The notes below the pieces were generated by a model. That model worked only from the letters and a program-made list of their open reading frames with translations. It had not been told where the DNA came from and searched no databases. 44,371 nucleotides of DNA from Escherichia phage 6949: the sequence record OL362273.1; one strand, 5' to 3'. Each line of letters begins with the position of its first letter. Position 1 is the stretch's first letter. Both the position numbers and the translations under genes were made by a program. Below, piece by piece: positions 8,795 to 40,061 of this stretch.

Positions 8795-8810
8795 GTCTAA
8801 CATGTGAGAC
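8795..8810. repeat. Palindrome family copy, degenerate (GTCTAACATGTGAGAC)
   Basis: One mismatch from a perfect 16 bp palindrome. Its flank CTAGGTTGTCTCACATG (read on the minus strand) matches the copy at 14411-14428. Confidence 0.4.
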
Positions 8811-8844
8811 AACCTAGATTTATCTTAGTGATGATATCTTAGTG

Positions 8845-8876
8845 TTGACAAGGCCATCTCAATATAATACTATTCA
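8845..8876 (+). promoter_or_regulatory. Candidate host sigma70 early promoter
   Basis: A perfect TTGACA at 8845-8850 is followed by a TATAATACTAT block. Spacing to the exact TATAAT is only 12 bp, so the working -10 is more likely TACTAT or AATACT at 15-17 bp. It sits upstream of the first early genes. Confidence 0.35.
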
Positions 8877-9016
8877 TCACGTAGGCAGCACTGAGGTGCT
8901 TAGTAGCCAGCTAGTAAGGCATACGAAGAGACTAGCGCTTACATTGCTCTTTAACAATTTGCTTAGTGTAACCTATGTATGCCGTGGTCAATTACTTATT
9001 GAATGAGGGATTAACT

Positions 9017-9196
9017 ATGACATTAAACAACCGTGAACTATCCGTTCTCTTCACTCTGTTGTGCTACATGATTCGTAAAAACGAATTGCTTACAGATGAC
9101 GAGTTAGCCTTGTATCACCGCTTTCTTAACGAAGGTTGGACCGATACAGTTAATCAATACCGTAACATGATAGATGAGTTGAGGGAGGGTAAATAA
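9017..9196 (+). CDS. Early hypothetical protein
   Basis: RBS GAGGGA precedes ATG 9017, which is in frame within track ORF 8975-9196. It is the first gene of the early region. Confidence 0.5.
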   Translation: MTLNNRELSVLFTLLCYMIRKNELLTDDELALYHRFLNEGWTDTVNQYRNMIDELREGK

Positions 9197-10171: not shown

Positions 10172-10172
10172 G

Positions 10173-10299: not shown

Positions 10300-10362
10300 G
10301 GCTTAACAAGGCGTTGCTACGGTAGCGCCTGATTAAACTTTCACTTACTAGAGGTTAAAATT

Positions 10363-10544: not shown

Positions 10545-11473
10545 TTGATATGACTACGGAAAACATCCTTCTGTCTGTTCGTGAAGCTGCAACCGCTGAA
10601 ATCAAGCAGCACTTAGACAATATCGGCACTTCTTACATCAAAGTTGGCGCTTGTCTGAATGAATTACGCGGTGATTTCGAAGGTCAAAAAGACTTTTTAG
10701 CTTATGTAGAATCAGAGTTCGGCATCAAGAAAGCACAATGCTACAAGCTGATGAGTGTAGCCCGTGTCTTTGAAGGAGACGAACGCTTTAAAGGTGTGGC
10801 TATGCGTGTAATGCTGGCGCTTGTTCCTTTCGCTGATGAAAATATAATCATGGAGAAGGCCGCAGAACTCGCCGCAGAGGGCAAGCTGGACACTAACGCC
10901 GTAAACGCCCTGATTGATCCTAAGAAAGAGACAAAGGCCGAGACGGTACAATCTAAGGCTGAGGCGGTAAAACCGCAGGAGAATGCGACTGAGGCCGCAG
11001 AAACTATGCAAGGACATGCAACCTTTGAGGATTTCATATTAGAGAAGGCGAAAGAGGAGCTACAAAGTGTGCCGCCAGCAAGTGAGTCTGGTAACGACGA
11101 ATCCGCACCGTGGGAAGACAAAAGCAAGCAGGAAGACACAAAGGCAGCGCCACGGGATAACACGGCTAACACCGAGAGTGCCGCTATTGCTGGCCTTCTG
11201 GCACAAATTAAAGCACTGACCGAGCAATTACAGGCAGCTAATGACCGCATTGCCTCCTTAAGCAGCGCACGCGAAAGCAAGAAAGCAGCCGCGCCTATGC
11301 TGCCGCAATTCAAATCTTCCTGCTTCTATGCTCGCTTAGGTTTAAGCGCTGAGGAGGCAACGAAGAAAACAGCAGTTAACAAGGCACGCCGCGAACTGGT
11401 TAAGCTAGGATACGGCGAAGGCCATGAAGCATGGCCCTTAATCTCTGAGGCAGTAGAAGAATTAACTAAGTAA
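10541..11473 (+). CDS. Early hypothetical protein (310 aa) immediately upstream of the RNA polymerase gene
   Basis: RBS AAGGTGA precedes the ATG. The protein has a structured N-terminal domain, a low-complexity Ala/Glu/Lys-rich middle, and a C-terminal helical domain. It occupies the slot that T7 gp0.7 holds, but I see no kinase motifs. Confidence 0.6.
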   Translation: MIDMTTENILLSVREAATAEIKQHLDNIGTSYIKVGACLNELRGDFEGQKDFLAYVESEFGIKKAQCYKLMSVARVFEGDERFKGVAMRVMLALVPFADENIIMEKAAELAAEGKLDTNAVNALIDPKKETKAETVQSKAEAVKPQENATEAAETMQGHATFEDFILEKAKEELQSVPPASESGNDESAPWEDKSKQEDTKAAPRDNTANTESAAIAGLLAQIKALTEQLQAANDRIASLSSARESKKAAAPMLPQFKSSCFYARLGLSAEEATKKTAVNKARRELVKLGYGEGHEAWPLISEAVEELTK

Positions 11474-11536: not shown

Positions 11537-14164
11537 ATGCAAGACCTACACGCTATTCAACTTCAACTTGAAGAAGAAATGTTTAACGGCGGTATCCGTC
11601 GCTTTGAAGCGGACCAACAACGCCAGATTGCATCCGGTAATGAATCAGACACGGCATGGAATCGCCGCTTATTGTCCGAGTTAATCGCGCCAATGGCTGA
11701 AGGTATTCAGGCATACAAGGAAGAGTATGAAGGTAAAAGAGGCCGTGCACCGCGTGCATTAGCTTTCATTAACTGCGTAGAAAACGAAGTGGCAGCATAT
11801 ATCACGATGAAAATCGTTATGGATATGCTGAACACGGATGTAACCTTGCAGGCTATAGCCATGAATGTAGCTGACCGCATTGAGGACCAAGTACGTTTTA
11901 GCAAGCTGGAAGGTCACGCCGCCAAATACTTTGAGAAAGTTAAGAAGTCACTTAAGGCAAGTAAGACTAAATCATATCGCCATGCGCACAACGTAGCGGT
12001 CGTGGCTGAGAAGTCAGTAGCTGACCGTGACGCTGATTTCTCTCGCTGGGAGGCATGGCCTAAAGACACCTTGCTGCAAATTGGGATGACCTTGCTTGAA
12101 ATCTTAGAGAATAGCGTATTCTTCAACGGGCAACCTGTCTTCCTCCGCACCTTGCGCACTAATGGCGGCAAACATGGTGTTTACTACCTACAGACTAGTG
12201 AACACGTAGGTGAGTGGATAACTGCATTTAAAGAACATGTAGCGCAACTTAGTCCAGCCTATGCACCTTGCGTTATTCCTCCGCGTCCGTGGGTATCACC
12301 CTTTAACGGTGGGTTTCATACTGAGAAAGTAGCAAGCCGTATTCGTCTGGTAAAAGGCAATCGTGAGCACGTCCGCAAGCTGACCAAAAAGCAAATGCCA
12401 GCGGTTTACAAGGCTGTTAACGCTTTGCAGGCGACTAAGTGGCAGGTTAATAAAGAGGTTTTACAGGTTGTGGAGGACGTTATACGTCTAGACCTCGGCT
12501 ATGGTGTACCTTCCTTTAAACCACTCATCGACCGTGAGAACAAGCCCGCTAATCCGGTGCCGTTAGAGTTCCAGCACCTGCGAGGCCGTGAACTGAAAGA
12601 AATGCTTACGCCGGAACAATGGCAAGCCTTTATCAACTGGAAAGGTGAATGTACTAAGCTGTACACCGCTGAAACTAAGCGCGGAAGCAAATCGGCGGCA
12701 ACCGTTCGCATGGTTGGTCAGGCCCGTAAATATAGCCAGTTCGACGCAATCTACTTCGTGTATGCACTGGACAGCCGCAGCCGTGTATACGCGCAATCTA
12801 GCACGCTCTCGCCGCAATCAAACGACTTAGGCAAGGCATTGCTCCGTTTTACCGAAGGGCAGCGTCTTGATAGCGCTGAGGCGCTTAAGTGGTTTTTGGT
12901 GAACGGGGCTAATAACTGGGGTTGGGATAAGAAAACTTTTGACGTGCGCACCGCTAACGTGCTGGATAGTGAATTTCAAGACATGTGCCGCGACATTGCA
13001 GCGGATCCGCTGACCTTCACTCAATGGGTAAATGCCGACTCCCCTTACGGCTTCCTTGCATGGTGCTTTGAATATGCGCGTTATCTGGATGCACTGGATG
13101 AAGGCACGCAAGACCAATTCATGACGCACCTCCCAGTCCATCAAGATGGTAGTTGTTCTGGTATCCAGCACTACAGTGCTATGCTACGCGATGCAGTAGG
13201 TGCGAAAGCAGTAAACCTTAAGCCCTCTGACTCCCCTCAAGATATTTATGGCGCGGTTGCGCAGGTTGTTATCCAGAAGAATTACGCCTACATGAATGCA
13301 GACGACGCAGTGACTTTCACATCTGGAAGCGTCACACTTACAGGTGCAGAACTGCGTAGCATGGCTAGTGCGTGGGATATGATAGGAATCACTCGCGGAT
13401 TGACCAAAAAGCCCGTAATGACACTACCTTATGGCAGCACACGTCTAACCTGCCGTGAATCAGTGATTGATTATATCGTTGATTTAGAAGAAAAAGAGGC
13501 CCAACGGGCTATTGCGGAAGGGCGTACCGCCAATCCTGTACACCCTTTTGATAATGACCGTAAAGACAGCCTGACACCTAGCGCAGCTTATAACTATATG
13601 ACAGCTTTAATCTGGCCTTCTATTTCGGAAGTGGTTAAAGCTCCTATAGTGGCAATGAAAATGATTCGTCAGCTTGCCCGTTTCGCAGCTAAAAGGAATG
13701 AAGGCTTAGAGTATACCCTGCCTACTGGCTTCATCTTGCAACAAAAGATTATGGCTACTGATATGCTACGCGTATCTACTTGCTTGATGGGAGAAATCAA
13801 GATGAGTCTACAGATTGAAACGGACGTAGTAGATGAAACGGCAATGATGGGCGCTGCTGCTCCTAACTTTGTGCATGGTCATGATGCCAGTCACCTTATC
13901 TTAACGGTCTGCGACCTTGTTGATAAAGGGATTACATCTATCGCAGTAATTCATGATTCTTTTGGCACTCATGCAGGCCGTACAGCCGATCTACGCAACA
14001 GCTTAAGGGCAGAAATGGTGAAGATGTATCAAGGCCGTAATGCACTGCAAAGCCTGCTAGATGAGCACGAAGAACGCTGGTTAGTTGATACAGGAATACA
14101 AGTACCAGAGCAAGGGGAGTTTGACCTTAACGAAATCTTAGTTTCAGACTATTGCTTCGCATAA
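11537..14164 (+). CDS. Single-subunit DNA-directed RNA polymerase (SP6-type)
   Basis: The 875 aa protein starts [32 protein letters not shown], matching the SP6 RNA polymerase N-terminus as I remember it. The catalytic region reads [19 protein letters not shown] and VIHDSFGTH, and the C-terminus ends ..FA. Confidence 0.97.
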
Positions 14165-14172
14165 TATTAATA

Positions 14173-14202
14173 GGCCATTCCTTCGGGAGTGGCCTTTCTT
14201 TT
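14173..14202 (+). terminator. Intrinsic terminator after the RNA polymerase gene
   Basis: The stem GGCCAUUCC / GGAGUGGCC (one G-U pair) encloses a UUCG tetraloop and is followed by TTTCTTTT. Confidence 0.65.
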
Positions 14203-14237
14203 ACCTACTACCTGTAACATTTCATTAACATAAAAGT

Positions 14238-14253
14238 GTCTCACATGTGAGGC
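14238..14253. repeat. Palindrome family copy (GTCTCACATGTGAGGC)
   Basis: The core CTCACATGTGAG is a perfect palindrome. It lies 3 bp upstream of the phage promoter at 14256. Confidence 0.5.
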
Positions 14254-14255
14254 TT

Positions 14256-14278
14256 ATTTACCGGACACTATAGGATAG
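14256..14278 (+). promoter_or_regulatory. SP6-type phage promoter
   Basis: ATTTACCGGACACTATA followed by GGATAG; the predicted +1 G is at 14273. Confidence 0.8.
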
Positions 14279-14439
14279 CCGTCGGAGACGGGAAAGAAAG
14301 GGAAGATAAAGGATATAAAGGAAGTAATAGGTATTAAAGGTTATATAGGTTATCTAGGAATACCTATTACCTTCTTCCTTCCTCTTATTACCACTCAGAG
14401 GAAGGGCAGACCTAGGTTGTCTCACATGTGAGACTTCGT
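14279..14439. other. Origin-like region between twin phage promoters (possible primary replication origin)
   Basis: A purine-rich tract (GGAAAGAAAGGGAAGATAAAGGATATAAAGGAAG) and its pyrimidine-rich mirror flank a 12 bp perfect inverted repeat (GTAATAGGTATT at 14324-14335 and AATACCTATTAC at 14359-14370) around an AT-rich spacer. The position matches the T7 primary origin between gene 1 and gene 1.1. Confidence 0.4.
14419..14434. repeat. Palindrome family copy (GTCTCACATGTGAGAC, perfect)
   Basis: A 16 bp perfect palindrome, 5 bp upstream of the promoter at 14440. Confidence 0.55.
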
Positions 14440-14462
14440 ATTTACCGGACAGTATAGATAAG
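14440..14462 (+). promoter_or_regulatory. SP6-type phage promoter variant (ACAGTATAG core)
   Basis: ATTTACCGGACAGTATA followed by GATAAG. It carries a C to G change in the core relative to the other copies. Confidence 0.6.
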
Positions 14463-14487
14463 ACTAACTTACTTTGGAGATTTAACC

Positions 14488-14616
14488 ATGCGTAACTTCG
14501 AAAAGATGACCCGTAAAGCTAACCGTTTTGACATGGAAGAAGGGCAGAAGAAAGGCAAGAAGCTAAATAAACCTGTCCGTGACCGTGCATCTAAACGCGC
14601 AGCGTGGGAGTTCTAA
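14488..14616 (+). CDS. Small basic protein, T7 gp1.1-like (42 aa)
   Basis: The translation is MRNFEKMTRKANRFDMEEGQKKGKKLNKPVRDRASKRAAWEF. Its N-terminus MRNFEKMT and basic composition match my recollection of T7 gp1.1. RBS GGAG lies upstream. The ORF is below the track cutoff. Confidence 0.55.
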   Translation: MRNFEKMTRKANRFDMEEGQKKGKKLNKPVRDRASKRAAWEF

Positions 14617-14619
14617 GTT

Positions 14620-16608
14620 ATGGCTATTATTCAGAATGTACCGTGTCCTGCCTGTCAAAAGAACGGACATGATATTACTGGCAATCATTTAATGATCTTT
14701 GACGACGGGGCAGGATACTGTAACCGTGGTCACTTCCATGATAACGGTAAACCTTATTACCACAAGCCGGAAGGTGGCATCGAGATAACCGAGTTACCTA
14801 TTACTGGCAATATCAAATATACACCTTCTCAATTCAAAGAAATGGAGAAGGAAGGGAAGATAAGCGACCCTAAATTACGTGCCATCGCACTAGGTGGTAT
14901 GCGTATGAAAGACCGTTGGGAGGTCATGAATGAGCAAGAAAGGGCAGACCAAGAAGCAGAGTGGAAACTTGATGTTGAATGGTTCCTCACGCTTAAGCGT
15001 AAGAACCTTGTTTCCCGACACATTCGCGGCGACATTTGCGCATTGTATGATGTACGTGTCGGACACGATGAAGAGGGTAGAGTCTCGCGGCATTACTATC
15101 CACGCTTCGAGAAAGGTGAGCTAGTAGGAGCTAAGTGTCGTACCTTACCTAAAGATTTCAAGTTTGGACACTTAGGTAAACTCTTTGGTATGCAAGATCT
15201 TTTCGGTATGAATACTTTGTCTCACGTGTTAGACAAGGGAAGACGAAAGGATTGCTTGCTTATTGTGGGTGGGGAACTGGATGCACTAGCAGCGCAGCAG
15301 ATGCTCCTTGATTCTGCCAAGGGTACTAAGTGGGAAGGTCAACCTTACCATGTATGGTCTGTTAACAAAGGGGAGTCTTGCCTTGAAGAGATTGTGCAGA
15401 ACCGTGAACACATCGCCCAATTCAAGAAGATTATTTGGGGCTTCGATGGGGATGAGGTAGGGCAGAAGCAGAACCAGCAAGCGGCTCGCCTGTTCCCTGG
15501 CAAATCCTATATCCTTGAGTACCCTTCTGGTTGCAAAGATGCCAACAAGGCATTGATGGCTGGCAAGGCTAAAGAGTTTGTTGATGCATGGTTTAATGCC
15601 AAGTCATCTGATGAAGTCTTTGGTAGCCAGATTAAATCTATCGCATCTCAAAGGGATAAGCTCAAGGCTGCACGTCCAGAGCAAGGACTATCATGGCCTT
15701 GGCCTAAGCTGAACAAGGTAACGCTAGGTATTCGTAAGAATCAGCTTATCATTGTAGGTGCAGGGTCTGGTGTAGGTAAGACTGAGTTCCTTCGTGAAGT
15801 AGTTAAGCACCTCATTGAAGAACACGGTGAATCTGTAGGCATCATTTCTACAGAAGACCCGATGGTCAAGGTGTCCCGTGCTTTTATCGGCAAGTGGATT
15901 GATAAGCGTATTGAGTTACCGCCAACCAACGACCCGAAAGAAGACGGATACCGTGAGGTGTTCGATTACACCGAGGAAGAAGCTAACGCCGCCATTGATT
16001 ATGTAGCTGATACAGGTAAGCTGTTTGTAGTTGACCTAGAGGGTGACTATTCGATGGAAAAGGTAGAGCAAACTTGCCTAGAGTTTGAGGCTATGGGTAT
16101 TTCTAATATCATCATTGATAACTTAACGGGGATTAAATTAGATGAGCGTGCTTTTGGTGGGAAGGTTGGTGCACTTGATGAATGCGTCAAGCGGATTGGT
16201 ACTATCAAAGACCGACACCCGGTTACTATATTCCTTGTATCACACCTTACACGTCCTCCGGCAAACCGTACCCAACACGAAGAAGGTGGCGAAGTTATCC
16301 TTTCTGACTTCCGAGGCTCAGGCGCTATCGGATTCTGGGCATCTTACGCCTTGGGGATTGAGCGTAATACAAGAGCTGAAACGCTTGACGAAAGGACTAC
16401 CACGTACATCTCATGTGTCAAAGACCGCGACCAAGGTATCTGGACTGGAACCAAGGTCATGCTTAAGGGTGACATTCAAACCGGACGTTTAATGGAACCA
16501 CAAGCCCGTACTAAGTCATTTGACACCGGCGAAGCAAGGCAACAAGAAGTACCGGATTTACCGGACACTATAGAAGAGACTAACTTCGATGAAGAAAGTG
16601 AGTTCTGA
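14620..16608 (+). CDS. DNA primase/helicase (T7 gp4-like)
   Basis: The N-terminus has a zinc-binding motif (CPACQ...C.RGH), and the helicase domain has a Walker A motif (GAGSGVGKTEF). The C-terminus is acidic and ends in Phe (DEESEF), as in T7 gp4. Confidence 0.93.
   Translation: MAIIQNVPCPACQKNGHDITGNHLMIFDDGAGYCNRGHFHDNGKPYYHKPEGGIEITELPITGNIKYTPSQFKEMEKEGKISDPKLRAIALGGMRMKDRWEVMNEQERADQEAEWKLDVEWFLTLKRKNLVSRHIRGDICALYDVRVGHDEEGRVSRHYYPRFEKGELVGAKCRTLPKDFKFGHLGKLFGMQDLFGMNTLSHVLDKGRRKDCLLIVGGELDALAAQQMLLDSAKGTKWEGQPYHVWSVNKGESCLEEIVQNREHIAQFKKIIWGFDGDEVGQKQNQQAARLFPGKSYILEYPSGCKDANKALMAGKAKEFVDAWFNAKSSDEVFGSQIKSIASQRDKLKAARPEQGLSWPWPKLNKVTLGIRKNQLIIVGAGSGVGKTEFLREVVKHLIEEHGESVGIISTEDPMVKVSRAFIGKWIDKRIELPPTNDPKEDGYREVFDYTEEEANAAIDYVADTGKLFVVDLEGDYSMEKVEQTCLEFEAMGISNIIIDNLTGIKLDERAFGGKVGALDECVKRIGTIKDRHPVTIFLVSHLTRPPANRTQHEEGGEVILSDFRGSGAIGFWASYALGIERNTRAETLDERTTTYISCVKDRDQGIWTGTKVMLKGDIQTGRLMEPQARTKSFDTGEARQQEVPDLPDTIEETNFDEESEF
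16556..16578 (+). promoter_or_regulatory. SP6-type phage promoter inside the 3' end of the primase/helicase gene
   Basis: ATTTACCGGACACTATA followed by GAAGAG; the predicted +1 G is at 16573. Confidence 0.75.
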
Positions 16609-16628
16609 TTAGTGTATTTATCAGGGCT

Positions 16629-16646
16629 TGTCTCACACGTGAGACA
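16629..16646. repeat. Palindrome family copy (TGTCTCAC-AC-GTGAGACA)
   Basis: Two 8 bp inverted arms separated by 2 bp, extendable with a G-U pair to about 11 bp, followed by CTCTTATT. Confidence 0.55.
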
Positions 16647-16684
16647 GGCTCTTATTAAGTACATTAAATAACTGGAGATTGATT

Positions 16685-17368
16685 ATGTATAAATTAGTAT
16701 TGAATGTAGGTGATTATGTTCGTAACATCAATGTAACCTCACGTAGATATCGTTGCCGTGGTACTGTGACTAATGTAAGTGAAAACAGCTACTATGTAGA
16801 ATACAGTAATGGTATTAGACAGGCTTATCAAAAGGAATCAGCACATAACTACCTTGAGAAGATTGGAGAGGTAAGCAATCAATGTAAGTGCGTACACGAT
16901 GAGATTTGCGATAAGTGTGCCCGCCAGCTGCATAAAATGCTATTATACCCTCTTCGCTATGGTGCTGGTGTTCAAACATTAGCAGAGGCATATGGCAAAA
17001 GTAAGACCACACTCAAGAAAGAGCGCCGCAATGTAATCACTGGTAAGACTCAAAGTGAAATGATTAAACTATGTGGCACTGCATTAGGTGTTACGCAGTT
17101 TAATACTCGTTCATTGGGTAAATCCACAGGGCAAGCTATGGTGAAGATTGGCGAAGCCATGATGCATCCAAATGTACCTGTACGAATCATGGATGTTGAC
17201 CATGCAATCACAGAACACGGTACGCAACGACGTGTAATTAATAAGCATTTTGCCGACACTATAGAAGGTATTATTCGTAAGCAAGAGTTGAAGGGTCTTC
17301 ACATCTTAAATGGTGAAGAATTACTGTACCTACCTATCGTTACTGAAGAAACATACGTGAATATCTAA
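16685..17368 (+). CDS. Hypothetical protein with Cys cluster and a possible helix-turn-helix segment
   Basis: RBS GGAG precedes ATG 16685; the track start at 16679 is a TTG. The protein has a CKCVHDEICDKC cluster and the segment YGAGVQTLAEAYGKSKTTL. Confidence 0.6.
   Translation: MYKLVLNVGDYVRNINVTSRRYRCRGTVTNVSENSYYVEYSNGIRQAYQKESAHNYLEKIGEVSNQCKCVHDEICDKCARQLHKMLLYPLRYGAGVQTLAEAYGKSKTTLKKERRNVITGKTQSEMIKLCGTALGVTQFNTRSLGKSTGQAMVKIGEAMMHPNVPVRIMDVDHAITEHGTQRRVINKHFADTIEGIIRKQELKGLHILNGEELLYLPIVTEETYVNI
17247..17269 (+). promoter_or_regulatory. Candidate internal SP6-type promoter (degenerate upstream half)
   Basis: ATTTTGCCGACACTATA followed by GAAGGT. The core from -12 to +5 is intact, and there are three mismatches upstream. 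Confidence 0.4.
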
Positions 17369-17587: not shown

Positions 17588-17764
17588 ATGCAGAATAAAC
17601 ATAGTCTTAGAATGTTCGATGGTCATGAAGACCTGCAAGCCAAGATTACTAACCAAGCCTTCCTGTTCGCACAGTTAACTATGGCTGAGGCCAAGAAGAA
17701 TAGTCTCACTCGTGAACAGGTTATCAAGGAAAGTGAAGTGAAACGTAAGATTCGCAGTCGATAA
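17588..17764 (+). CDS. Small hypothetical protein (58 aa)
   Basis: An ATG-start ORF with a weak RBS, ending just before a palindrome copy. It is below the track cutoff. Confidence 0.4.
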   Translation: MQNKHSLRMFDGHEDLQAKITNQAFLFAQLTMAEAKKNSLTREQVIKESEVKRKIRSR

Positions 17765-17773
17765 GTCAAGGGT

Positions 17774-17791
17774 TGTCTCACGTGTGAGACA
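17774..17791. repeat. Palindrome family copy (TGTCTCAC-GT-GTGAGACA)
   Basis: Two 8 bp inverted arms separated by 2 bp, followed by GCCTTTAT. Confidence 0.55.
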
Positions 17792-17820
17792 GCCTTTATC
17801 ATGTTGATTGGAGGTGCATT

Positions 17821-17928
17821 ATGCCACGTGATTATGATTCTGATTGGGACTACTATGACTCAATGAATCCAAAACCAGAACGTTCAGATGATTACTACGA
17901 AACAGAGGCAATGTATGAAAACTATTAA
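17821..17928 (+). CDS. Small acidic Tyr/Asp-rich peptide (35 aa)
   Basis: RBS GGAGGTG lies 4 nt upstream of ATG 17821. The ORF is below the track cutoff. Confidence 0.4.
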   Translation: MPRDYDSDWDYYDSMNPKPERSDDYYETEAMYENY

Positions 17929-20880: not shown

Positions 20881-20939
20881 GTTATACTCAAGGTCACTTA
20901 CGAGTGGCCTTTATGAATAACTTAACTGGAGGAAATATA

Positions 20940-21497
20940 ATGAATGAACTGAACACTAAGATGCTCAAGAAAGTTTATAATCTTGTATATAGTATCACGG
21001 GCCTACAATTCTACCCTGTAGGCGGTGCGGTTCGTGACACCCTGTACGGATTAACACCTAAAGACTATGATATGGTGTTGCCTGTAGGGTCTATGGCAGA
21101 TTCTCAGGCGCACGAAATCATGGAAAATATCTCTGAAGAGATGGCAATTATGGGATTTAGTACCAAACTCTACCAATCATACGGTATCAATTTAGGTTAT
21201 GAAATCAACCCTACCTCTTTTCAGGCTATGTTCCTTAGCTGCATGAAAGTGCAGATGCGTAATTGCCAACTTGATTTGCTTCTTTCTAAGGCTGAAACCA
21301 TCCAAGATCATGTACGTAAGCACGATTGCAATATGAATATGGTGTGGTTCGATGGTAAAGATATCAAGTGGGAGCACGGCGGTGTTACTCCTTTCGTTCC
21401 TGTGTTAGAGTTCAACCCTGACGGATGTGATCGTCGCATTGCTTACATGGACAAGAAGCGCCATGAACTTATCCGTCACAAATTAATGCATCTTTGA
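20940..21497 (+). CDS. Minimal nucleotidyltransferase, CCA-adding enzyme / poly(A) polymerase head-domain-like
   Basis: RBS GGAGGA lies 6 nt upstream of ATG 20940. The motif FYPVGGAVRDTLYGLTPKDYDMVL matches the class II tRNA nucleotidyltransferase signature GGxVRD...D.D. At 185 aa it has no room for the usual body and tail domains. Confidence 0.65.
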   Translation: MNELNTKMLKKVYNLVYSITGLQFYPVGGAVRDTLYGLTPKDYDMVLPVGSMADSQAHEIMENISEEMAIMGFSTKLYQSYGINLGYEINPTSFQAMFLSCMKVQMRNCQLDLLLSKAETIQDHVRKHDCNMNMVWFDGKDIKWEHGGVTPFVPVLEFNPDGCDRRIAYMDKKRHELIRHKLMHL

Positions 21498-22038: not shown

Positions 22039-22845
22039 ATGGCACGTGGTGATTTTGATTTTGGTGCTCAGGTTACTAAAGCTGAAGGTAAGGTTTTTAA
22101 GAACCCTGAAGTTGGCGATCATGAAGCAGTAATCTCTGGCATCATTCATGTGGGTTCCTTCCAAGATATCTTTAAGAAAGGTAATACCACTGAAGCTAAG
22201 AAGCCAGCAAACTTTGTTCTTGTTAAGATTGTACTGATGGGTGACGATGACAAGAACGAAGATGATTCTCGCATGGAACAGTGGATGGCTGTGCCTCTGA
22301 AGTCTGGTGACAAGGCAACCTTGACTAAGTTCCTGAATGCAGTTGACCCTAAAGAGCTGCTTGGTGGTTTCGATGACTTCATCGGTGAATGCCTGACTGC
22401 AACTATGGTTGGCTCTGGCGACAAGAAGGATGATGGTACTTTCAAGTATGTTAACTGGAAAGGCTTTGGCGGTATGCCTGATAAGTTGAAGAAGCTTGTA
22501 CTGGCTCAGGTAGAAGAGGAAGGTCTGTCTATGACAGGTCATATCACCTTCGACAAGCTGACCAAAGAAATCCTTGATGACATTCCTGCTAACTTGGTGC
22601 GTCAATACTTCCTTAATGAAACACCTCGTGGTAAGAACCTGTCTGTTGCTGGTTCTCACGTAGAAGCAATCATTAAAGCTGCTCGTGAAGAAGACCCAGA
22701 GTGGAAGAAAGCCAAGAAGAAAGATGACGAGGATGCTACTCCAGCTAATCGTAAATCTCTGGATACTGGAGAGTCTGTTCCACAGGAAGTACCTGAAGCA
22801 GAAGATACTCCTGCACCGGAGATGGATGAGGACGCGGAATATTAA
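22039..22845 (+). CDS. Putative single-stranded DNA-binding protein (T7 gp2.5-like)
   Basis: A 268 aa protein with a strongly acidic C-terminal tail ending in an aromatic residue (..EMDEDAEY), which is the gp2.5 hallmark. It sits in the replication module. The assignment is by architecture only. Confidence 0.5.
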   Translation: MARGDFDFGAQVTKAEGKVFKNPEVGDHEAVISGIIHVGSFQDIFKKGNTTEAKKPANFVLVKIVLMGDDDKNEDDSRMEQWMAVPLKSGDKATLTKFLNAVDPKELLGGFDDFIGECLTATMVGSGDKKDDGTFKYVNWKGFGGMPDKLKKLVLAQVEEEGLSMTGHITFDKLTKEILDDIPANLVRQYFLNETPRGKNLSVAGSHVEAIIKAAREEDPEWKKAKKKDDEDATPANRKSLDTGESVPQEVPEAEDTPAPEMDEDAEY

Positions 22846-23074: not shown

Positions 23075-23090
23075 GTCTCACGTGTGAGAC
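23075..23090. repeat. Palindrome family copy (GTCTCAC-GT-GTGAGAC)
   Basis: Two 7 bp inverted arms separated by 2 bp, lying between the stop at 23073 and the promoter at 23106. Confidence 0.5.
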
Positions 23091-23105
23091 AAATCGGTGT
23101 CCGGT

Positions 23106-23128
23106 ATTTACTGGACACTATAGAAGAG
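23106..23128 (+). promoter_or_regulatory. SP6-type phage promoter
   Basis: ATTTACTGGACACTATA followed by GAAGAG; the predicted +1 G is at 23123. Confidence 0.85.
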
Positions 23129-23178: not shown

Positions 23179-23553
23179 ATGTTCAAGATTGAAACTATCG
23201 TAAACCGTGTTGTTAAAGGTGCTGCTCTGGTATCCGTTGAGTCTTTCATTATCGTCGATGAAGCTGATCAACTGGTAGCTGGTACTAAGGCTTATGATAC
23301 TCGTGAAGAAGCTCAGGCTAAGATTGACAGCATGGGTAACTTCGCTGCGGGTCTGGAGTTCGCTCGTGCTTGCTTCCCTGAGCAGGCTGACAAAGCTCAG
23401 ATTGGTAAGGCTAATATCGTAGCTGAATATCTGGATTGGATTGCTGCTGGTAAGCCGGTGAAAGAAGTTAAAGCTGCGGAAGAAGTTGAAGCTCCGGCAG
23501 TAGAAGAAGTAGCTGCACCGGAAGTTCCGGTAAGCGAAGAAGAAGAGTTTTAA
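23179..23553 (+). CDS. Acidic hypothetical protein (124 aa) in a stand-alone promoter-gene-terminator unit
   Basis: RBS AAGGAG precedes the ATG. The C-terminal tail is acidic and ends SEEEEF. A terminator follows directly. Confidence 0.6.
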   Translation: MFKIETIVNRVVKGAALVSVESFIIVDEADQLVAGTKAYDTREEAQAKIDSMGNFAAGLEFARACFPEQADKAQIGKANIVAEYLDWIAAGKPVKEVKAAEEVEAPAVEEVAAPEVPVSEEEEF

Positions 23554-23559
23554 TTGATG

Positions 23560-27023: not shown

Positions 27024-27967
27024 ACATCTTCCAATTCCTAGGTCTTCCAGAAGACCACCGCAATCATCCATTCATGCTGGTGAAGCATCGCGGTGAAGTT
27101 CCTGAGAAGAAATTAACTTTTCCATGTTATGCACAGGTGAAACGAGATGGAATATTCAGTGCTGTTGTGGTGCGTAATGATGGTGTTGTTGCCATCTTTG
27201 GTCGTACTGGTAAGAAGCTCGCAAATGTTGAAGCCTTGGAAAAGACATTTAGTGTATTTCCTGTCGGGTTGTATCTTGGTGAGTTGCAATCTATGGCTGT
27301 TGATGTTTATCTTGAAGCTCTGTCAGGAGTGGTAAACCCTAATCGTACAGAGCCACTTGATTTCATAGGGCAGCAGATTAAAGACAACCTATATATCGAC
27401 TTCTTCGATATGTTAACCATTAAGGCATTCCATGATGGATTCACTGATGTTTCTTATCTCAAACGTTACGATGCTTTACATCGTCGCATCGGCACTCATC
27501 TTAGCGGGTACAACGCTATTCTTCCTATTACTCCTTGCCATAATGAGCGAGAGGTTGAAGCGTTTGCTCAAGAGCAAATAGATGCAGGCAGAGAAGGTGC
27601 GGTATTTAAACTTGACGTGGAGTACGAAAGTGGGCACAAGGGCTATCGTCAAACGAAGATTGTTCGTATGGTATCTTATGACCTCACCTGCATTGGGTGG
27701 GAGGAAGGAAAAGGTAAGTATAAAGGTAAAGTAGCTAATTTAATCTTTAAATGGAAAGGTGGTAAGTCCGTTAAGGCTATGCTGGGGCGTGGCTGGTCAC
27801 ATGAGGATGCAGCACAGATGTATCACGATATTAAGCACGGTGGCGAACTAAACGTCATTGGGAAAATCTTCGCTGTTAAGGCGTTACAGGAATCTAGTAA
27901 GGGAGTCCTGAGACTCCCCAAGGTTTCTGAACTTAGGTTTGATAAGGAAGTCCCTGATGTCTTCTAA
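27020..27967 (+). CDS. ATP-dependent DNA ligase (T7 gp1.3-like)
   Basis: RBS AAGGAGGTG precedes the ATG. The adenylation motif I is present as KRDG (AQVKRDGIFSAV), together with EGAVFK. The size fits phage ligases. Confidence 0.9.
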   Translation: MNIFQFLGLPEDHRNHPFMLVKHRGEVPEKKLTFPCYAQVKRDGIFSAVVVRNDGVVAIFGRTGKKLANVEALEKTFSVFPVGLYLGELQSMAVDVYLEALSGVVNPNRTEPLDFIGQQIKDNLYIDFFDMLTIKAFHDGFTDVSYLKRYDALHRRIGTHLSGYNAILPITPCHNEREVEAFAQEQIDAGREGAVFKLDVEYESGHKGYRQTKIVRMVSYDLTCIGWEEGKGKYKGKVANLIFKWKGGKSVKAMLGRGWSHEDAAQMYHDIKHGGELNVIGKIFAVKALQESSKGVLRLPKVSELRFDKEVPDVF

Positions 27968-28442
27968 TCCAAATTATCGAAAACCACCTCGTACACCGCC
28001 AAGACCACTTGCCTACTGTCCTTTTACTGGAAAGCTTTTCCGTAAGTTCAAAGATGGCTGGAGAGAAACAGGACTTAGCAGAAAGAGTGATGGATATTTA
28101 CAGTATAAAGTCGATGGTAAGACTGTAAGTGTTCATGTTTTAGCAATGAATATGATGGGTTATGACACTACCGGCTTTACAGTAGATCACATAAATCATA
28201 TACGCTGGGATAATAGGTTTATTAATCTACGTCTACTATCTCATAAAGATAATTGTTTAAATAGAGAGGCGATACATACAAGTAAGCTGCCGAGTGGTAA
28301 CTACAGAGCGCGATGTGGAAATGTTCATCTTGGCGTATTTGAGGATAAGTTACTTGCTCGTGGTGCTATCCTATGGTATCGCCATAGGAGATTTAATAAT
28401 GTTAAATTCAATGAAGGCAACGCGTGCCGTAGAAGTAGCTGA
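27957..28442 (+). CDS. HNH homing endonuclease
   Basis: The motif SVHVLAMNMMGYDTTGFTVDHINHIRWDNRFINLRLLSHKDN is an HNH signature. The ORF overlaps both neighbours, as a compact insertion would. Confidence 0.8.
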   Translation: MSSNPNYRKPPRTPPRPLAYCPFTGKLFRKFKDGWRETGLSRKSDGYLQYKVDGKTVSVHVLAMNMMGYDTTGFTVDHINHIRWDNRFINLRLLSHKDNCLNREAIHTSKLPSGNYRARCGNVHLGVFEDKLLARGAILWYRHRRFNNVKFNEGNACRRSS

Positions 28443-36357: not shown

Positions 36358-37079
36358 TGGCTATAGGTTCAGCCGTTATGGCTGGTATGTCTTCTATTGG
36401 TAGCATGTTTGCAGGCAGTGGTGCAGCAGCCGCTGCTGGAGGTGCTGCCGCAGGTGGCGGAGGTTTGCTAGGTTCACTAGGTGGATTCCTAAGTGGCTCT
36501 ACTGCTGGTTTCTCTAATGCTGGCCTTCTTGGTGCTGGCCTTCAAGGGTTAGGCTTGATTGGTGATCTATTTGGTGGAAGTGATGAAGCCAAGGCGATGA
36601 AGAAAGCACAAGAAGAGCAATGGCGGCAGCAGCTTATTGCTACACAAGAGGCGTACAAGACAGTGGCAGACGCAGAACGTTCTGCTGCTAAACAATATCA
36701 TGCAGATGCAATCAGTAATCAGGCTTCACTGCTACAGCAGCGAGCACAGGTTGCATTACTTGCTGGGGCTACTGGTACTGGTGGTAATTCTGTGTCCTCT
36801 ATGCTTAATGACTTAGCAGCAGATGGCGGCAGGAACCAGAGTACTATCATTGATAACTATGAGAATCAGAAGATTAATTTCACCAACCAGCTTAAGTCTA
36901 TCCAACGTGGTGGTCAGATGCAGATGCGTGAGTTTAAGAAGCCTTCTGCTATGAATACCTTGGTTAAAGGTATTCCAAGTCTGGCATCTGCCTATGTAAC
37001 TGGTAGTAAGTCTGGCAAGGCATTGGGTAAAGTCTTAACTGATTCTCGCACATATTCATCTGGAACAAGAGGTATTTAA
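36357..37079 (+). CDS. Internal virion protein (small, Gly-rich N-terminus)
   Basis: RBS AAGGAGGG precedes the ATG, which is coupled through TAATG. The protein has a Gly/Ala-rich N-terminus and a helical C-terminal half. Confidence 0.65.
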   Translation: MAIGSAVMAGMSSIGSMFAGSGAAAAAGGAAAGGGGLLGSLGGFLSGSTAGFSNAGLLGAGLQGLGLIGDLFGGSDEAKAMKKAQEEQWRQQLIATQEAYKTVADAERSAAKQYHADAISNQASLLQQRAQVALLAGATGTGGNSVSSMLNDLAADGGRNQSTIIDNYENQKINFTNQLKSIQRGGQMQMREFKKPSAMNTLVKGIPSLASAYVTGSKSGKALGKVLTDSRTYSSGTRGI

Positions 37080-40027
37080 TGGCAATTGAGCGACAAGCAG
37101 TACAAGGTCTGCCACAAGTGCAGGCCACTTCTCCTAATGTCATGACCTTTGCACCTCAACAAGTGGGAGGTGTGGAGGCTGGCGTGGCTTCTACCTCCGG
37201 TAGTAGGTTTATCGAAGACCTTATTCGTGCAGCAAGCAGCGTGGCTGATGTTACCACTGGTATCCTTAATCAGAAGATTGAGGAAGATAAGGTTGTTCAA
37301 ATGGAACGGGCATATAACGGATTAATGCCTTCTGAGGATGCAACTCGTGGTGGCGCTCGTGCTAACATGCTTGTCAAAGCTCAACTGCTAGCTAATGATG
37401 AAGCAGCACGAATGAAAGACATGGCTACTCGTTTCCAAGGAACGGATGACGAATGGACACAACTTATGGTTGACTCTCGTAATGAGATGCAGAATAAGCT
37501 GTTCCAGCAATACCCTGAGTTGCAAGGTGACAAAGATACTATGCGTATGGTCACTAATGTCTTCCAAGAACAGCAGCCTCAGATTTGGGCTACACGAACC
37601 CAGCATAAACTTGACCGTGAACAAGCAGACCGTGAGGATACCTTTGACGGGCGAGTGGCTTCTACTTGGGATTCTAATATTGACCCTGAAGCCTCTGGCT
37701 ATGCTTTACAGGAACGAATCCGCGAAGGTCTTACTCAAGGATTACTACCTGAACAGATGCACAAGAAGTTAGTCCAGCGAGCAATTTCACTTGCACAAGG
37801 CGGTGATGTTAGCATGGCTGAAGCCCTGAAGTATGTGAAGGACGATAAGGGTGTTTCTGTTTATGCTAAGAATCCACAGCTTATCACAGCCATCACTAGT
37901 GGTAATGCAGTTTGGGCTAGGAATAATGTAGCTGATGTAACTCGTATGTCTTTCGAAGTTAAAGAATCCTACCTTGCAGGTGATTTAACTGATGAAGAAC
38001 TGTTGGAACGAGCACAGCACATTAATAATCTGACAGGTAACTCTGTCTTCTCTAATCCAGAGCTAGAGGCACTGATGCGCCAACGGGCTAAGCAGAATGC
38101 AGAGCTAGGTGCAATGCAGGATATGCGACGTGAGCTTTACTCTGACCGCCTGACTGGCTTCCAAGGTAAGACTGATAAAGAGAAGAAGGCTTACATTGAT
38201 GTTATCAAACAGGATAGCCAACTTTATGCAGACCAGCAAATCAAACAACGTGGCTTGGACCCTTACAGTCAAGAGGCTGAAGCTATTCGTGGTGCAGTGG
38301 AAGTGCAGCGCCTGCAATTCATGAACTCCAAAGGCTTAGTGGATGATACCTTTGAGTCTCGTATCAAAGCCATGGAATCTATGCTATCGCCTGAGCACTT
38401 TGCCAAGGGCGAACCACAGGAGTTGATGACTATTCGCCAGTTGTGGGAACAGTTGCCAGAAGAGAGCCGAGGTGTCTTTGGTGACACGGTGAATGGCTAC
38501 ATGGATAACTACAACACTGCACTACAAATGGGAGAGACACCTTTGCAGGCTGCAAGGTTTGCGCGTGAAGCACAGCAGAAATTCTCTCGTACTGAGAAGG
38601 AAACCAAGAAGTTCAACTCAGCTATTGGAGATGCACTGGATGAGGTATCTGGTGCTGGCTGGTTTGATGGTAAAACCGAAGTGTCAGACTTAGGTAAAGC
38701 TATTGCGGAAGAAGAGTTACGAGCTAAGGCCAATATGTTGTGGTCTAGTGGTATGCGTAACATGGATTCTATCAAGAGGGCTTTAATTACTTGGGGCAAT
38801 AAACGCTACACTCAAACAGAGGATGCAAAGACTTCCGGTGGCTATTTCATTAAAGGTGATTACACTTCTGCATCTGATATGCTTATGTCAGTTGGGAAAG
38901 GCGTAAACCCTACCGATGTACCTCTTGCGCTTGGTAGGTATGTAGAAACACAGATGCCAGAATTGAAGAAGGAGCTTCAAGAGTGGGAAACTAAAGATGA
39001 TATATACATTGATTACAATGAACAGAAAGGTACTTTCGTGATTCGTGCTGGTGCAGCAGGTCGCCCTCTTTCTGGAGTAATCCCTGTAACCTCTTTAGAT
39101 ACCACTTCACTACTAGATTCTGCCTATCAGAAGAAAGTAGAGGAACGAGATAAAGGCGAGTATGTTCACCCTTATCGTACAGATATTGGTGCACAAGAGC
39201 CTATGCCAGCTAAACCAACTGCCAAAGATATTGGTAAATTTGGACTAGCTAACTTCCTCATGTCTTCTGCTTTTGCTTCTGGTGAGAATCTGCCTTCTAA
39301 CTTCGAGATTAACTATCGAGGTAATATGCAACAATTCTATGACAAGCTAGCTATGGATGAGAATAAAGATAAAGTTGGCTTTAATAAGGCAACTGGAACC
39401 TTTACTCCATATAAAGATGCTCACGGTGAGTCTATCGGTTACGGTCATTTCTTAACGGAAGAAGAGAAGCGAAACGGGTATATTAAGATTGGTGATGAAC
39501 TAGTTCCCTATCGAGGGTCTATGTCTCAGCTTACAGAGAGCAAGGCTCGCGCTCTTATGGAGCAAGATGCCAAGAAGCATGTGCCTCCTACTCGTGACTG
39601 GAAGATTCCGTTTGACCAGATGCATCCTGCACAGCAACGTGGCTTGATGGATTTAACCTACAATTTAGGTAAAGGTGGAATCCAGAACTCACCGCGTGCT
39701 CTTGCTGCATTCAAAGCTGGTAAGCTTACGGAAGGCTTTATCGAAATGCTGGGCACTGCATCAAGTGAAGGTAAGCGTATCCATGGTTTACTGAAGCGAC
39801 GCGCTGAGGCATACAATATGGCATCTGCTGGTGGTGTGCCTAAGATTACCGAAGTGGAGACTCGTGAAGATGGCTCCATGTGGGTTAGGTTTGGTGGACC
39901 TATGCCAGCAGGTTCTGTCTCGGCATGGACTCATAAACGTATTGGCGCGGATGGTTGGTATCAGGTTTATGAGGCTGCACCTACCAAGTTAGCTAAAGGT
40001 TCTAAGGTGGGTAAATTTAAGTTGTAG
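37079..40027 (+). CDS. Internal virion (ejection) protein with C-terminal lysozyme-like peptidoglycan hydrolase domain
   Basis: A 982 aa ORF in the internal-protein block. The C-terminal region has YKDAHGESIGYGHFLTEEE, which resembles the T4 lysozyme core (YKDTEGYYTIGIGHLLT). Confidence 0.75.
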   Translation: MAIERQAVQGLPQVQATSPNVMTFAPQQVGGVEAGVASTSGSRFIEDLIRAASSVADVTTGILNQKIEEDKVVQMERAYNGLMPSEDATRGGARANMLVKAQLLANDEAARMKDMATRFQGTDDEWTQLMVDSRNEMQNKLFQQYPELQGDKDTMRMVTNVFQEQQPQIWATRTQHKLDREQADREDTFDGRVASTWDSNIDPEASGYALQERIREGLTQGLLPEQMHKKLVQRAISLAQGGDVSMAEALKYVKDDKGVSVYAKNPQLITAITSGNAVWARNNVADVTRMSFEVKESYLAGDLTDEELLERAQHINNLTGNSVFSNPELEALMRQRAKQNAELGAMQDMRRELYSDRLTGFQGKTDKEKKAYIDVIKQDSQLYADQQIKQRGLDPYSQEAEAIRGAVEVQRLQFMNSKGLVDDTFESRIKAMESMLSPEHFAKGEPQELMTIRQLWEQLPEESRGVFGDTVNGYMDNYNTALQMGETPLQAARFAREAQQKFSRTEKETKKFNSAIGDALDEVSGAGWFDGKTEVSDLGKAIAEEELRAKANMLWSSGMRNMDSIKRALITWGNKRYTQTEDAKTSGGYFIKGDYTSASDMLMSVGKGVNPTDVPLALGRYVETQMPELKKELQEWETKDDIYIDYNEQKGTFVIRAGAAGRPLSGVIPVTSLDTTSLLDSAYQKKVEERDKGEYVHPYRTDIGAQEPMPAKPTAKDIGKFGLANFLMSSAFASGENLPSNFEINYRGNMQQFYDKLAMDENKDKVGFNKATGTFTPYKDAHGESIGYGHFLTEEEKRNGYIKIGDELVPYRGSMSQLTESKARALMEQDAKKHVPPTRDWKIPFDQMHPAQQRGLMDLTYNLGKGGIQNSPRALAAFKAGKLTEGFIEMLGTASSEGKRIHGLLKRRAEAYNMASAGGVPKITEVETREDGSMWVRFGGPMPAGSVSAWTHKRIGADGWYQVYEAAPTKLAKGSKVGKFKL

Positions 40028-40043
40028 TATCTAACTCAAGGCT

Positions 40044-40061
40044 TGTCTCACATGTGAGACA
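40044..40061. repeat. Palindrome family copy (TGTCTCACATGTGAGACA, perfect 18 bp)
   Basis: A perfect 18 bp palindrome between the two large internal virion protein genes, followed by GGTCTTTAT. Confidence 0.55.

Follow-up and report, generated by a model that had tools for sequence, protein, structure and literature searches.

The genome of Escherichia phage 6949 (OL362273.1) carries a dispersed family of short palindromes, GTCTCAC-NN-GTGAGAC, which was analysed together with the early phage protein gp6. The window, i.e., the whole analysed stretch of 44,371 bp, is a complete, circularly permuted Vectrevirus genome (K1-5/K1E/SP6-like podophage, Molineuxvirinae). All of its genes are on the plus strand, and the K1-5-type left end lies at about position 8237. 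The palindromes are probably duplex-DNA recognition sites for gp6, and three of them would also form the apical stems of RNase III-type hairpins. This reading was drawn from comparison of sequences across related phages, and we give it a probability of roughly 0.7.

Eight copies had been listed in an earlier note made from the letters of the window, and all of them were confirmed at their places, five exact and three with one mismatch. The exact form was found at 14419, 16630, 17775, 23075, and 40045, against none in the shuffles (100 shuffles of the window, by exact-match count, set the chance level). With three or fewer mismatches, nine matches were observed against a mean of 1.56 in shuffled sequence. 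The one-mismatch copies are at 8795 (GTCTAAC..), 14238 (..GTGAGGC), and 15219 (..GTTAGAC), the last within the coding sequence of the primase/helicase. The ninth match, at 17703, has three mismatches and is probably due to chance. The centre is AT in four copies, GT in three, and AC in one. The note had put most copies just after stop codons, and those found there are 23075 (1 nt after gp17), 17775 (10 nt after gp11), 40045 (17 nt after gp35), and 16630 (21 nt after the primase gene). It had also placed three copies close upstream of phage promoters, and these are 14238, 14419, and 23075, which lie 2, 5, and 15 nt before position -17 of the SP6-type promoters at 14255, 14439, and 23105. The palindrome-promoter arrangement at 23075 is kept as far as Vibrio phage phi-A318. 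The five copies outside the RNase III-type hairpins are as follows (RNAP, RNA polymerase).

8795-8810, no strand assigned: left-end palindrome GTCTAACATGTGAGAC, with the TAAC variant in one half-site; the -35 element (TTGACA, 8845) of the strongest sigma-70-like early promoter follows about 35 nt downstream.
14238-14253, no strand assigned: palindrome GTCTCACATGTGAGGC; 73 nt past the RNAP stop codon and 2 nt before the promoter at 14255-14276 (from its position -17).
14419-14434, no strand assigned: exact palindrome; position -17 of the phage promoter at 14439-14460 follows after 5 nt.
15219-15234, no strand assigned: intragenic copy GTCTCACGTGTTAGAC; primase/helicase codons TCT CAC GTG TTA GAC, i.e., S-H-V-L-D.
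23075-23090, no strand assigned: exact palindrome; 1 nt past the gp17 stop codon and 15 nt before position -17 of the promoter at 23105-23126, which drives gp18.

The copies at 14411-14434 and 8795-8822 had been said to share an extended flank, from which a unit larger than the palindrome was suggested. The shared flank is real (CTAGGTTGTCTCACATG, at 8801-8817 on the minus strand and 14412-14428 on the plus strand), but its two occurrences are on opposite strands, and a larger unit is doubtful. The CTAGGTT flank is common to two copies only, in Vectrevirus and in SP6.

The palindrome is an ancient, lineage-specific element. The motif stands at orthologous positions in phages K1-5 and K1E. An exact copy is missing from SP6, where GTCTAAC-NN-GTTGGAC was found at the same gene boundaries. 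The form GTCCAAC-NN-GTTGGAC occurs in a Klebsiella phage, Lelliottia phage phD2B, and Pectobacterium phage PP1, and GTCTCAC-NN-GTGAGAC in Erwinia phage Era103. Proteus phage PM93 carries GTCCAAC with a 3-nt spacer and one left-end copy with a 2-nt spacer, and phi-A318 (Colwellvirinae) carries nine copies of GTCTCAC-NNN-GTGAGAC. A sample independent of the motif was taken from 56 IMG/VR loci retrieved via the primase protein. At primase identities of at least 36%, most of these loci have a family on the same GT(C/T)NNNN arm; a few short loci, or loci with imperfect copies, have no family of three or more perfect repeats. The copy number is 5-12 per genome or 20-kb locus, and further variants are GTCTACA-NN-TGTAGAC (12 copies in 22 kb), GTCTAAC-NNN-GTTAGAC, and GTTTCAC-N2/3-GTGAAAC. 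At 25-29% primase identity, some loci carry unrelated dispersed palindromes, e.g., AGTATC-N2/3-GATACT. The T7 genome has no such palindromes and no open reading frame (ORF) of the gp6 family. A copy was present in every complete genome compared at a distance of 350-750 bp from the left end, and the early and DNA-metabolism third holds the majority of the copies. No description of a conserved palindrome in SP6-like phages was found in the searchable papers, which do not cover the original SP6 and K1-5 genome papers.

Several other palindromes were seen in the course of this comparison. In loci L173-L176, which belong to distant T7-like environmental phages of about 28% primase identity, AGTATC-N2/3-GATACT stands 10-25 nt upstream of the ribosome-binding site (RBS) of nearly every gene, with 7-9 copies per locus and no detectable gp6 homolog. 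It may be an analogous system with a different partner. Two unrelated IMG/VR contigs (L081, 2411-2512, and L108, 8702-8812) hold tandem arrays of three GTCTCAC-NN-GTGAGAC copies, adjoined by AT-rich promoter-like DNA, with the centres TG, AG, and CA and no gp6-family ORF. Because of the missing gp6-family protein and the pyrimidine-purine centres, they were set aside as probably a different system, i.e., an operator array for another repressor. Era103 (L008) has two palindromes 35 bp apart at 7022-7072, just past the early terminator, the second of them inside an apparently disrupted phage promoter (ATTAACCACCCAG/gaa-palindrome-...TATAAGG). In K1-5 (L001), a foreign CAAC-type palindrome at 9570 stands where the downstream gene differs from that of the window (17775-17890) and of K1E, which suggests that two modules meet at the palindrome. 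BLAST breakpoints fell within 60 nt of palindromes in seven cases against 2.3 expected, under a null that included non-intergenic DNA.

The protein that changes together with the palindrome is gp6.

10550-11473, plus strand: gp6 gene, 307 aa; homolog of K1-5 gp6 and SP6 gp7; just upstream of the RNAP gene.

The alignment of gp6 homologs was made from loci with a previously established palindrome variant. At the Lys66 position, Lys is found where the half-site is xTCAC (Vectrevirus, Era103-like phages, all Colwellvirinae-like loci, L041, L029, and L170) and Asn where it is CAAC or TAAC (the Klebsiella, Lelliottia, Pectobacterium, and Proteus phages, L142-155, and L159/L160). SP6, with xxAAC half-sites, has His. 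In L157, which has GTCTACA, Arg is found at the Lys66 position and Gln63 is changed to Tyr. Between residue 66 and half-site position 5, no exception was found in about 40 loci. Among 270 well-occupied gp6 columns, only this one had disjoint residue sets between the two motif classes (Lys in 15 against Asn in 14 and His in one). As a control, about 2,300 columns of RNAP, primase, and DNA polymerase gave five disjoint columns, all highly variable within each class. A putative cognate DNA-binding protein is present in the same genome, with its residue 66 co-varying with half-site positions 5-7.

The Vectrevirus gp6 is 64-70% identical to the Asn/His-type proteins and 44% identical to the Lys-type protein of Era103. 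Because it is nearer to the Asn/His-type proteins, parsimony requires four or more independent switches, one of them a reversal in Vectrevirus. Lys with G:C and Asn with A:T are the classical pairs of major-groove readout. If Gly58 is position 9 of the 20-residue helix-turn-helix numbering, as we presume, residue 66 would be position 17, which contacts bases. Some gp6-family members (P0289-P0400) have Ser or Ala at the specificity position, or His or Tyr in place of Gln63, which predicts further half-site variants.

The N-terminal segment of gp6, DFLAYVESEF-GIK-KAQCYKLMSVARVF, fits a helix-turn-helix pattern. Behind it lie a low-complexity stretch of acidic character, a segment rich in heptads, and, at the C-terminus, a small helical domain. 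In the AlphaFold2 (AF2) model, helices were predicted at 43-57 and 61-74 with a turn at G58-I59-K60, disorder at 121-206, and a long helix at 205-247. Pfam DUF3102 (PF11300) was matched by 30 of 98 gp6-family representatives (best E = 1.1e-6); the relationship is transitive, with no match for the window protein. No functional literature was found on DUF3102. At the C-terminus (11315-11470, about the last 50 residues), Pfam DnaJ was matched by 10 of 98 relatives, and PDB J-domains were hit at E of about 0.002. The HPD motif was not found in the last 75 residues of any of 106 family members (HP[DE], 0/106), and the domain is predicted to be J-like only. The gene is a core gene of PHROG 4571. Its function was not described in the searchable literature, again with the original SP6 and K1-5 genome papers not covered.

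Other proteins of the phage were considered as binders. The product of 16685-17368, i.e., gp10, which the earlier note had named, was rejected, as no homolog is present in Era103 and phi-A318, both of which bear the motif. The protein gp18 had been tried first because of the conserved palindrome-promoter-gene-terminator arrangement. It was dropped, since its mediocre AF2 model (pLDDT 67) gave no fold match and its acidic EEEEF tail suggests a replisome partner. No gene was found whose presence or absence tracks the motif, and all SP6-like core genes are in every motif-bearing genome. Searches of PHROGs and Pfam with ten unknown early and middle proteins gave nothing DNA-binding, and PDB sequence searches with gp16, gp6, and gp18 gave nothing.

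Constraint on the palindrome was counted in 245 non-identical sites from the subfamily. The 2-nt spacers are purine-pyrimidine (RY) in 161 of 167 cases, with GT and AC at 61:45, and the 3-nt spacers are A(C/G)T, with ACT and AGT at 34:27. The fixed CACGTG or CATGTG centre that had been proposed is thus replaced by an RY rule, and either half-site, on its own strand, accordingly reads ...CAC-R. Position -1 is T in 156 sites and A in 82, and position +1 is A in 174 and T in 54, while G and C are nearly excluded. The two positions vary independently, with joint frequencies that match the product of the marginals, and the flanks are therefore not under selection for pairing. In imperfect copies, the non-Watson-Crick positions comprised 29 G.U, 15 A.C, and 38 other combinations, which indicates no wobble bias. 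The SP6 copies have a consistent T.G, mirrored in L151-153 by a consistent C.A on the sense strand, and the asymmetry at half-site position 4 has opposite directions in these two groups. The constraint is two-fold symmetric and independent of strand, as in a dimeric operator. The core is constrained symmetrically as sequence, not as stem.

Copies inside genes bear on the same point. The Vectrevirus copy in the primase gene encodes S-H-V-L-D, and the orthologs in SP6 and the Klebsiella, Lelliottia, and Pectobacterium phages have TC(T/C) AAC GTG TTG GAC (S-N-V-L-D). Three of the five codons (AAC/CAC, GTG, and GAC) showed zero synonymous variation in 21 distinct genes; in the gene-wide comparison, 8.5% of degenerate columns were without such variation. 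The right half cannot be GTGAGAC because the frame would gain a TGA stop, and this constraint explains the degenerate copy at 15219. In the left half, Vectrevirus changed A to C, so that Asn became His and the complementarity of the hairpin was broken. The copy in the RNAP gene of Era103 shows an independent Asn to His change (VSHVLD) relative to phD2B and PP1 (VSNVLD). In the SP6 RNAP gene, the peptide VSNVLD is kept and synonymous changes destroy the motif, and in that of phi-A318, the motif is kept at the same place in another codon phase (VSRCET). These half-site changes, the phase shift, and the motif loss argue that it is the half-site sequence that is selected, and neither the peptide nor pairing. 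By this comparison, the intragenic copies are under nucleotide-level selection and follow the variant of their genome. An origin by insertion was not found, i.e., the intragenic copies align without gaps to orthologs lacking the motif.

Three copies are placed in larger RNA hairpins, as follows.

16609-16667, plus strand: RNase III-type hairpin after the primase gene; -31.5 kcal/mol, z = -5.3.
17751-17813, plus strand: RNase III-type hairpin after gp11, with its apex at 17775-17790; -32.4 kcal/mol, z = -5.3.
40022-40084, plus strand: RNase III-type hairpin at the gp35/gp36 junction, with its apex at 40045-40060; -24.7 kcal/mol, z = -3.2.

All three are irregular hairpins of about 25 bp, in which an internal loop separates an upper stem of 13 bp from a lower stem of 10-12 bp. 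In the first, the palindrome 16630-16645 is apical, the lower stem has 12 bp, and the hairpin lies 58 nt downstream of the promoter at 16555. The contexts of the others are CAAGGGTT-palindrome-AGCCTTTAT/CA at 17775 and CTCAAGGCTT-palindrome-AGGTCTTTAT/GA at 40045. These three copies extend into 13-bp stems with G-U pairs and are followed by CTCTTAT or CTTTAT, where the earlier note had given stems of 9-11 bp and (G/C)CTTTAT. The bare copies at 8795, 14238, 14419, 15219, and 23075 have folding z-scores from -1.4 to +0.1 (+0.13 at 8795 and -0.87 at 14238). An RNA reading fails to cover these five because they fold no better than shuffled sequence. Over intergenic sites, extension of the stem past the core is bimodal, with 0-2 bp in 138 sites and 5-8 bp in 44.

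The T7 RNase III sites were folded as well, with cleavage positions taken from the annotation of Dunn and Studier. They have the same design, i.e., aCTCAAGG, a 9-10-bp apical hairpin, CCTTTAT/GAT, and a lower stem, and the architecture of the phage 6949 hairpins matches the T7 sites from R0.3 to R18.5. The frame CTCAAGG...CCTTTAT/GA is present as in T7 R0.3, R0.5, R1.1, and R18.5, with looser versions at 17775 (CAAGGG..CCTTTATCA) and 16630 (CAGGG..CTCTTATTA). The gp35/36-junction hairpins of 10 SP6-like genomes were retrieved by the same search pattern as T7 R0.5. The RNAalifold consensus, calculated from 10 sequences of the gp35/36 junction only, has 22 pairs, of which seven show compensatory changes, four of these in the lower stem. 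Because the design is the same, the search pattern is shared, and compensatory changes are present, the hairpins at 16630, 17775, and 40045 can be assigned by architecture as T7-type RNase III sites. By analogy with T7, host RNase III probably cleaves them after ..CUUUAU. It is possible that compact intergenic regions account for operators that double as apical stems of RNase III hairpins.

The earlier note had offered an operator and an RNase III-type processing site as equal readings, and each holds for a part. The RNase III-type reading fits three of the eight copies and fails in the five bare ones, and the operator is the better supported reading of the 16-bp core. The suggestion of weak terminators was not borne out. 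In the consensus scan, no palindrome showed the G+C-rich stem and U run of an intrinsic terminator: 14238 and 14419 have minimal 6-pair stems with the weak tails TTATTTAC and TTCGTATT, and the structured copies are followed by CUUUAU or CUUAUU without a U run. The terminator-like sites judged genuine, 14172-14195 and 23559-23586, are away from the palindromes. A scan of the window with Rfam matched no family.

Any two copies are also mutually complementary, because each is self-complementary. In the minimum-energy fold of 14160-14500, the palindromes 14238 and 14419 pair together over about 20 bp. The first phage promoter and an AT-rich stretch rich in TAGG repeats are looped out, at the position equivalent to the T7 primary origin.

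Several points weigh against gp6 as a duplex-DNA binder at these sites. The link of gp6 to the palindrome is comparative only, and the same co-variation is expected if gp6 recognised an RNA hairpin or a single-stranded DNA hairpin. Confidence in the AF2 model of gp6 is low (mean pLDDT 55), and the fold search with this all-helical model gave no matches. The predicted helix-turn-helix is built on secondary structure, sub-threshold to weak DUF3102 matches, and the sequence pattern. The half-site spacing is not fixed, and 2-nt and 3-nt spacers coexist in PM93, L157, and L159, which would suit a hairpin loop and is rarely seen in dimeric operators. Between site and promoter, the distance ranges over 0-15 nt. 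An RNA-level role is also clear for three of the eight copies, and in distant relatives many copies abut the Shine-Dalgarno sequence (GAGAC-aAGGAG), where an added RNA or translational role is possible. However, duplex DNA is favoured over a hairpin because of the symmetric constraints, the changes that break pairing, and the bare copies.

If all copies acted only as RNA, they would be hairpins in plus-strand transcripts and could be processing sites for RNase III or another RNase, barriers to 3' exonucleases, 5' stabilisers near the RBS, or weak terminators for the phage RNAP, and the conserved stem would come from common descent or from an RNA-binding factor. The three T7-like hairpins with covariation fit this account. 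The copies also occupy the niche of T7 RNase III sites (before the RBS, beside promoters, and mostly in the left genome half), the spacer length varies as a loop would, and SP6 copies have a consistent U.G pair. It is nevertheless unlikely, since five of the eight window copies fold like shuffled sequence and the stem extension is bimodal. A stem of 6-7 bp is also too short for RNase III. Intragenic copies follow the variant of the genome despite broken pairing (C.U) and an amino-acid change, the mismatches are not enriched in G-U, and L151-153 have C.A on the sense strand. The rules of the centre and flanks are two-fold symmetric without covariation in the flanks, and the left-end copy stands upstream of the early promoters. 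Slightly less likely again are DNA hairpins or cruciforms that act in replication and are recognised by gp6 or a replisome protein, e.g., at an origin, in primase/helicase loading, or in recombination, with the hairpin promoters of phage N4 and the repetitive extragenic palindromic (REP) hairpins of REP-associated tyrosine transposases (RAYT) as analogues. Symmetry on both strands and a 2- or 3-nt spacer would suit such hairpins. The sites cluster after the RNAP gene, corresponding to the T7 primary origin, and both outer ends read GTC, the recognition triplet of T7 primase. The Lamassu/DdmABC defence senses palindromes in T7-like phages, as single-stranded DNA hairpins (PMC11707656). However, 7-bp stems are very short for cruciform extrusion, pairing is often broken in imperfect copies, the flanks lack covariation, and the change of Lys to Asn matched with the change of base pair is typical of major-groove readout in B-form DNA.

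Two further explanations are less probable. The palindromes could be selfish or structural linkers, such as REP, miniature inverted-repeat transposable elements (MITE), or elements like the promoter early stem-loop (PeSL), which are homogenised by gene conversion and give microhomology for module exchange. The foreign CAAC-type copy of K1-5 exactly at a downstream gene replacement, the mild enrichment of breakpoints within 60 nt (7 against 2.3 expected), and the Era103 copy that interrupts promoter-like sequence point in this direction. The explanation is improbable, as the gap-free alignments show that the intragenic copies are not insertions and the null model of the breakpoints was not limited to intergenic DNA. 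Gene conversion also does not account for a change of the gp6 residue at each motif change, nor for the RY centre. A host transcription factor or nucleoid protein that binds the sites and is exploited by the phage would agree with the occurrence of the GTCTCAC form in phages of E. coli, Erwinia, and Vibrio. This is the most improbable of the explanations, because the variants differ among phages of E. coli, Salmonella, and Klebsiella, hosts whose DNA-binding proteins are nearly identical, and track a phage protein instead. We know of no E. coli operator that matches the palindrome; the sites of CRP, LexA, SlmA, MatP, DeoR, and RutR, and also lacO, differ from it in half-site arrangement or spacing.

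With duplex-DNA recognition by gp6 as the preferred reading, a mechanism can be proposed. The protein would be made early, from transcripts of the host RNAP, because its gene follows the host-type early promoters and precedes the phage RNAP gene. The coiled coil presumably dimerises gp6 and would put two helix-turn-helix heads on the two half-sites of the duplex. Each head would read (T/A)GTCTCAC-R, with Lys66 reading C:G at half-site position 5. An acidic disordered linker of about 80 residues would tether the heads loosely, and spacers of 2 or 3 nt may be tolerated because of it. About eight sites would be occupied, i.e., one upstream of the early promoters, three directly before middle promoters, one in the primase gene, and three at gene ends, and in other genera also inside the RNAP gene. 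Bound gp6 may act as a roadblock or insulator at the boundaries of transcription units, or as a modulator of adjacent promoters. A roadblock would stop polymerases arriving from upstream, and the binding would help to time early and middle expression. The variable spacing of site and promoter argues against an activator or repressor of fixed geometry and fits a roadblock, an insulator, or looser modulation. An alternative control device is plausible because no homologs of T7 gp0.7, gp2, and gp3.5 were detected in the window by tblastn. With the sites clustered about the counterpart of the T7 primary origin, a role of gp6 in replication or genome organisation, of the KfrA or ParB kind, could also be considered.

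The wider proposal is tentative, and we hold it at a little below even odds. It states that gp6 is a new sequence-specific global regulator of SP6-like podophages (Molineuxvirinae, Colwellvirinae, and relatives), with 8-12 co-evolving sites in place of the gp0.7, gp2, and gp3.5 controls. The regulator would unite a DUF3102-like helix-turn-helix, a coiled coil, and a J-like domain, and would punctuate T7-type transcription through roadblock, insulation, or promoter control. When its specificity residue flips among Lys, Asn, and Arg, every site would follow, including those in the RNAP and primase genes, where an amino-acid substitution would be tolerated for the sake of the site.

Other features of the genome were observed apart from the palindromes. 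In a 4-kb test region, phage vB-Eco-KMB47 showed 97% identity to the window, and nine SP6-type phage promoters were found in the window. The first tailspike (4141-6039) has 99% identity to the K5 lyase of K1-5. The second tailspike (6125-7837, 570 aa) shows no relationship to the endosialidase of K1-5 (35% identity across 20% of the length), and because of this the second host specificity of phage 6949 probably differs from that of K1-5. A very basic HNH-like ORF of 161 aa (27957-28442) is absent in all eight compared genomes, and a nucleotidyltransferase-like ORF (20913-21497) is otherwise found only in Proteus phage PM93 and Pectobacterium phage PP1. The two are probably insertions of a mobile or accessory kind. 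Dense short CTTAGTG/CCTTAGT repeats occupy about 8500-8840, between the terminal-repeat region and the left-end palindrome. T7 genome ends likewise have short repeats nearby. The proteins gp16 (22039-22845) and gp18 (23179-23553) each end in an acidic tail whose last residue is aromatic (..DEDAEY and ..SEEEEF), and we take these tails to resemble the tails of T7 gp2.5 and gp4 that dock on DNA polymerase. The gp16 protein is probably an analogue of a single-stranded DNA-binding protein, and gp18 may be a small replisome partner.

Gene expression in T7, SP6, and K1-5 is usually ascribed to promoters, terminators, RNase III sites, and RNAP-binding proteins. To our knowledge, sequence-specific DNA-binding regulators are not part of this account, and the palindromes with gp6 suggest such a regulatory layer in a classic phage group. 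An operator with its regulator is already a known kind of system. What is new here is the DUF3102-like early protein in lytic phages of the T7 supergroup, the genome-wide sites, the recoded sites in essential genes, and the fusion with RNase III hairpins. If the reading is true, the core gene of PHROG 4571 and the DUF3102 fold would gain a function, and a specificity change of one residue would be mirrored across the site set of a whole genome, including the recoding of essential genes. Orthogonal protein-operator pairs (K, N, and R types) would become available to synthetic biology beside SP6-type RNA polymerases, and the design of therapeutic K1-specific phages would be concerned. The palindromes may be a liability to Lamassu/DdmABC defence, balanced against their function.

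Among known systems, the T7 RNase III sites (R0.3, R0.5, R1, R1.1, R1.3, R3.8, R4.7, R6.5, R13, and R18.5) are likewise about ten dispersed, similar hairpins. They are also intergenic, 25-35 nt before start codons, often beside promoters, and mostly early or middle. The likeness is closest at 16630, 17775, and 40045, which share the CTCAAGG...CCTTTAT/GA frame, the internal loop, and the lower stem. However, the apical stems of T7 are imperfect, rich in G.U, and act as RNA only, and none is inside a gene, whereas in the window the apex is a perfect DNA palindrome that stands alone in five of eight copies, is also intragenic, and co-varies with a phage protein. REP sequences, bacterial interspersed mosaic elements (BIME), and T4-type PeSL are likewise genome-specific short palindromes at boundaries, with association to promoters or terminators and possible module shuffling. 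The phage palindromes differ in being shorter (16-18 bp), perfectly symmetric, and few, and some are intragenic without insertion. No transposase-like gene, RAYT or other, was found in the gene tables or family searches.

A similar arrangement is known from KorB/OB on RK2, KfrA, and ParB/parS, in which about ten copies of one 13-16 bp palindrome are likewise spread over a small replicon, some beside promoters and others distant or intragenic, and the binder is a dimeric helix-turn-helix protein encoded by the replicon. Proteins of the KfrA type combine a globular DNA-binding head at the N-terminus with a long tail of coiled coil (PMC7821693, PMC7783346). No sequence homology of gp6 to ParB, KorB, or KfrA was detected, their Pfam families were not found in gp6 or its 98 relatives, and gp6 differs in belonging to a lytic T7-like phage, in its 2- or 3-nt spacers, in the J-like C-terminus, and in having no evident partner ATPase. 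Its likeness to ParB and KorB is thus an analogy of function and architecture only. In regulators of the GntR family, the specificity-determining residue correlates with the motif base (PMC4494728). The gp6 family is similar, as one residue of the predicted recognition helix changes together with one half-site base across lineages. It differs in that the whole putative regulon lies inside a virus genome, and in that sites within coding regions have had their codons remodelled to follow the regulator.

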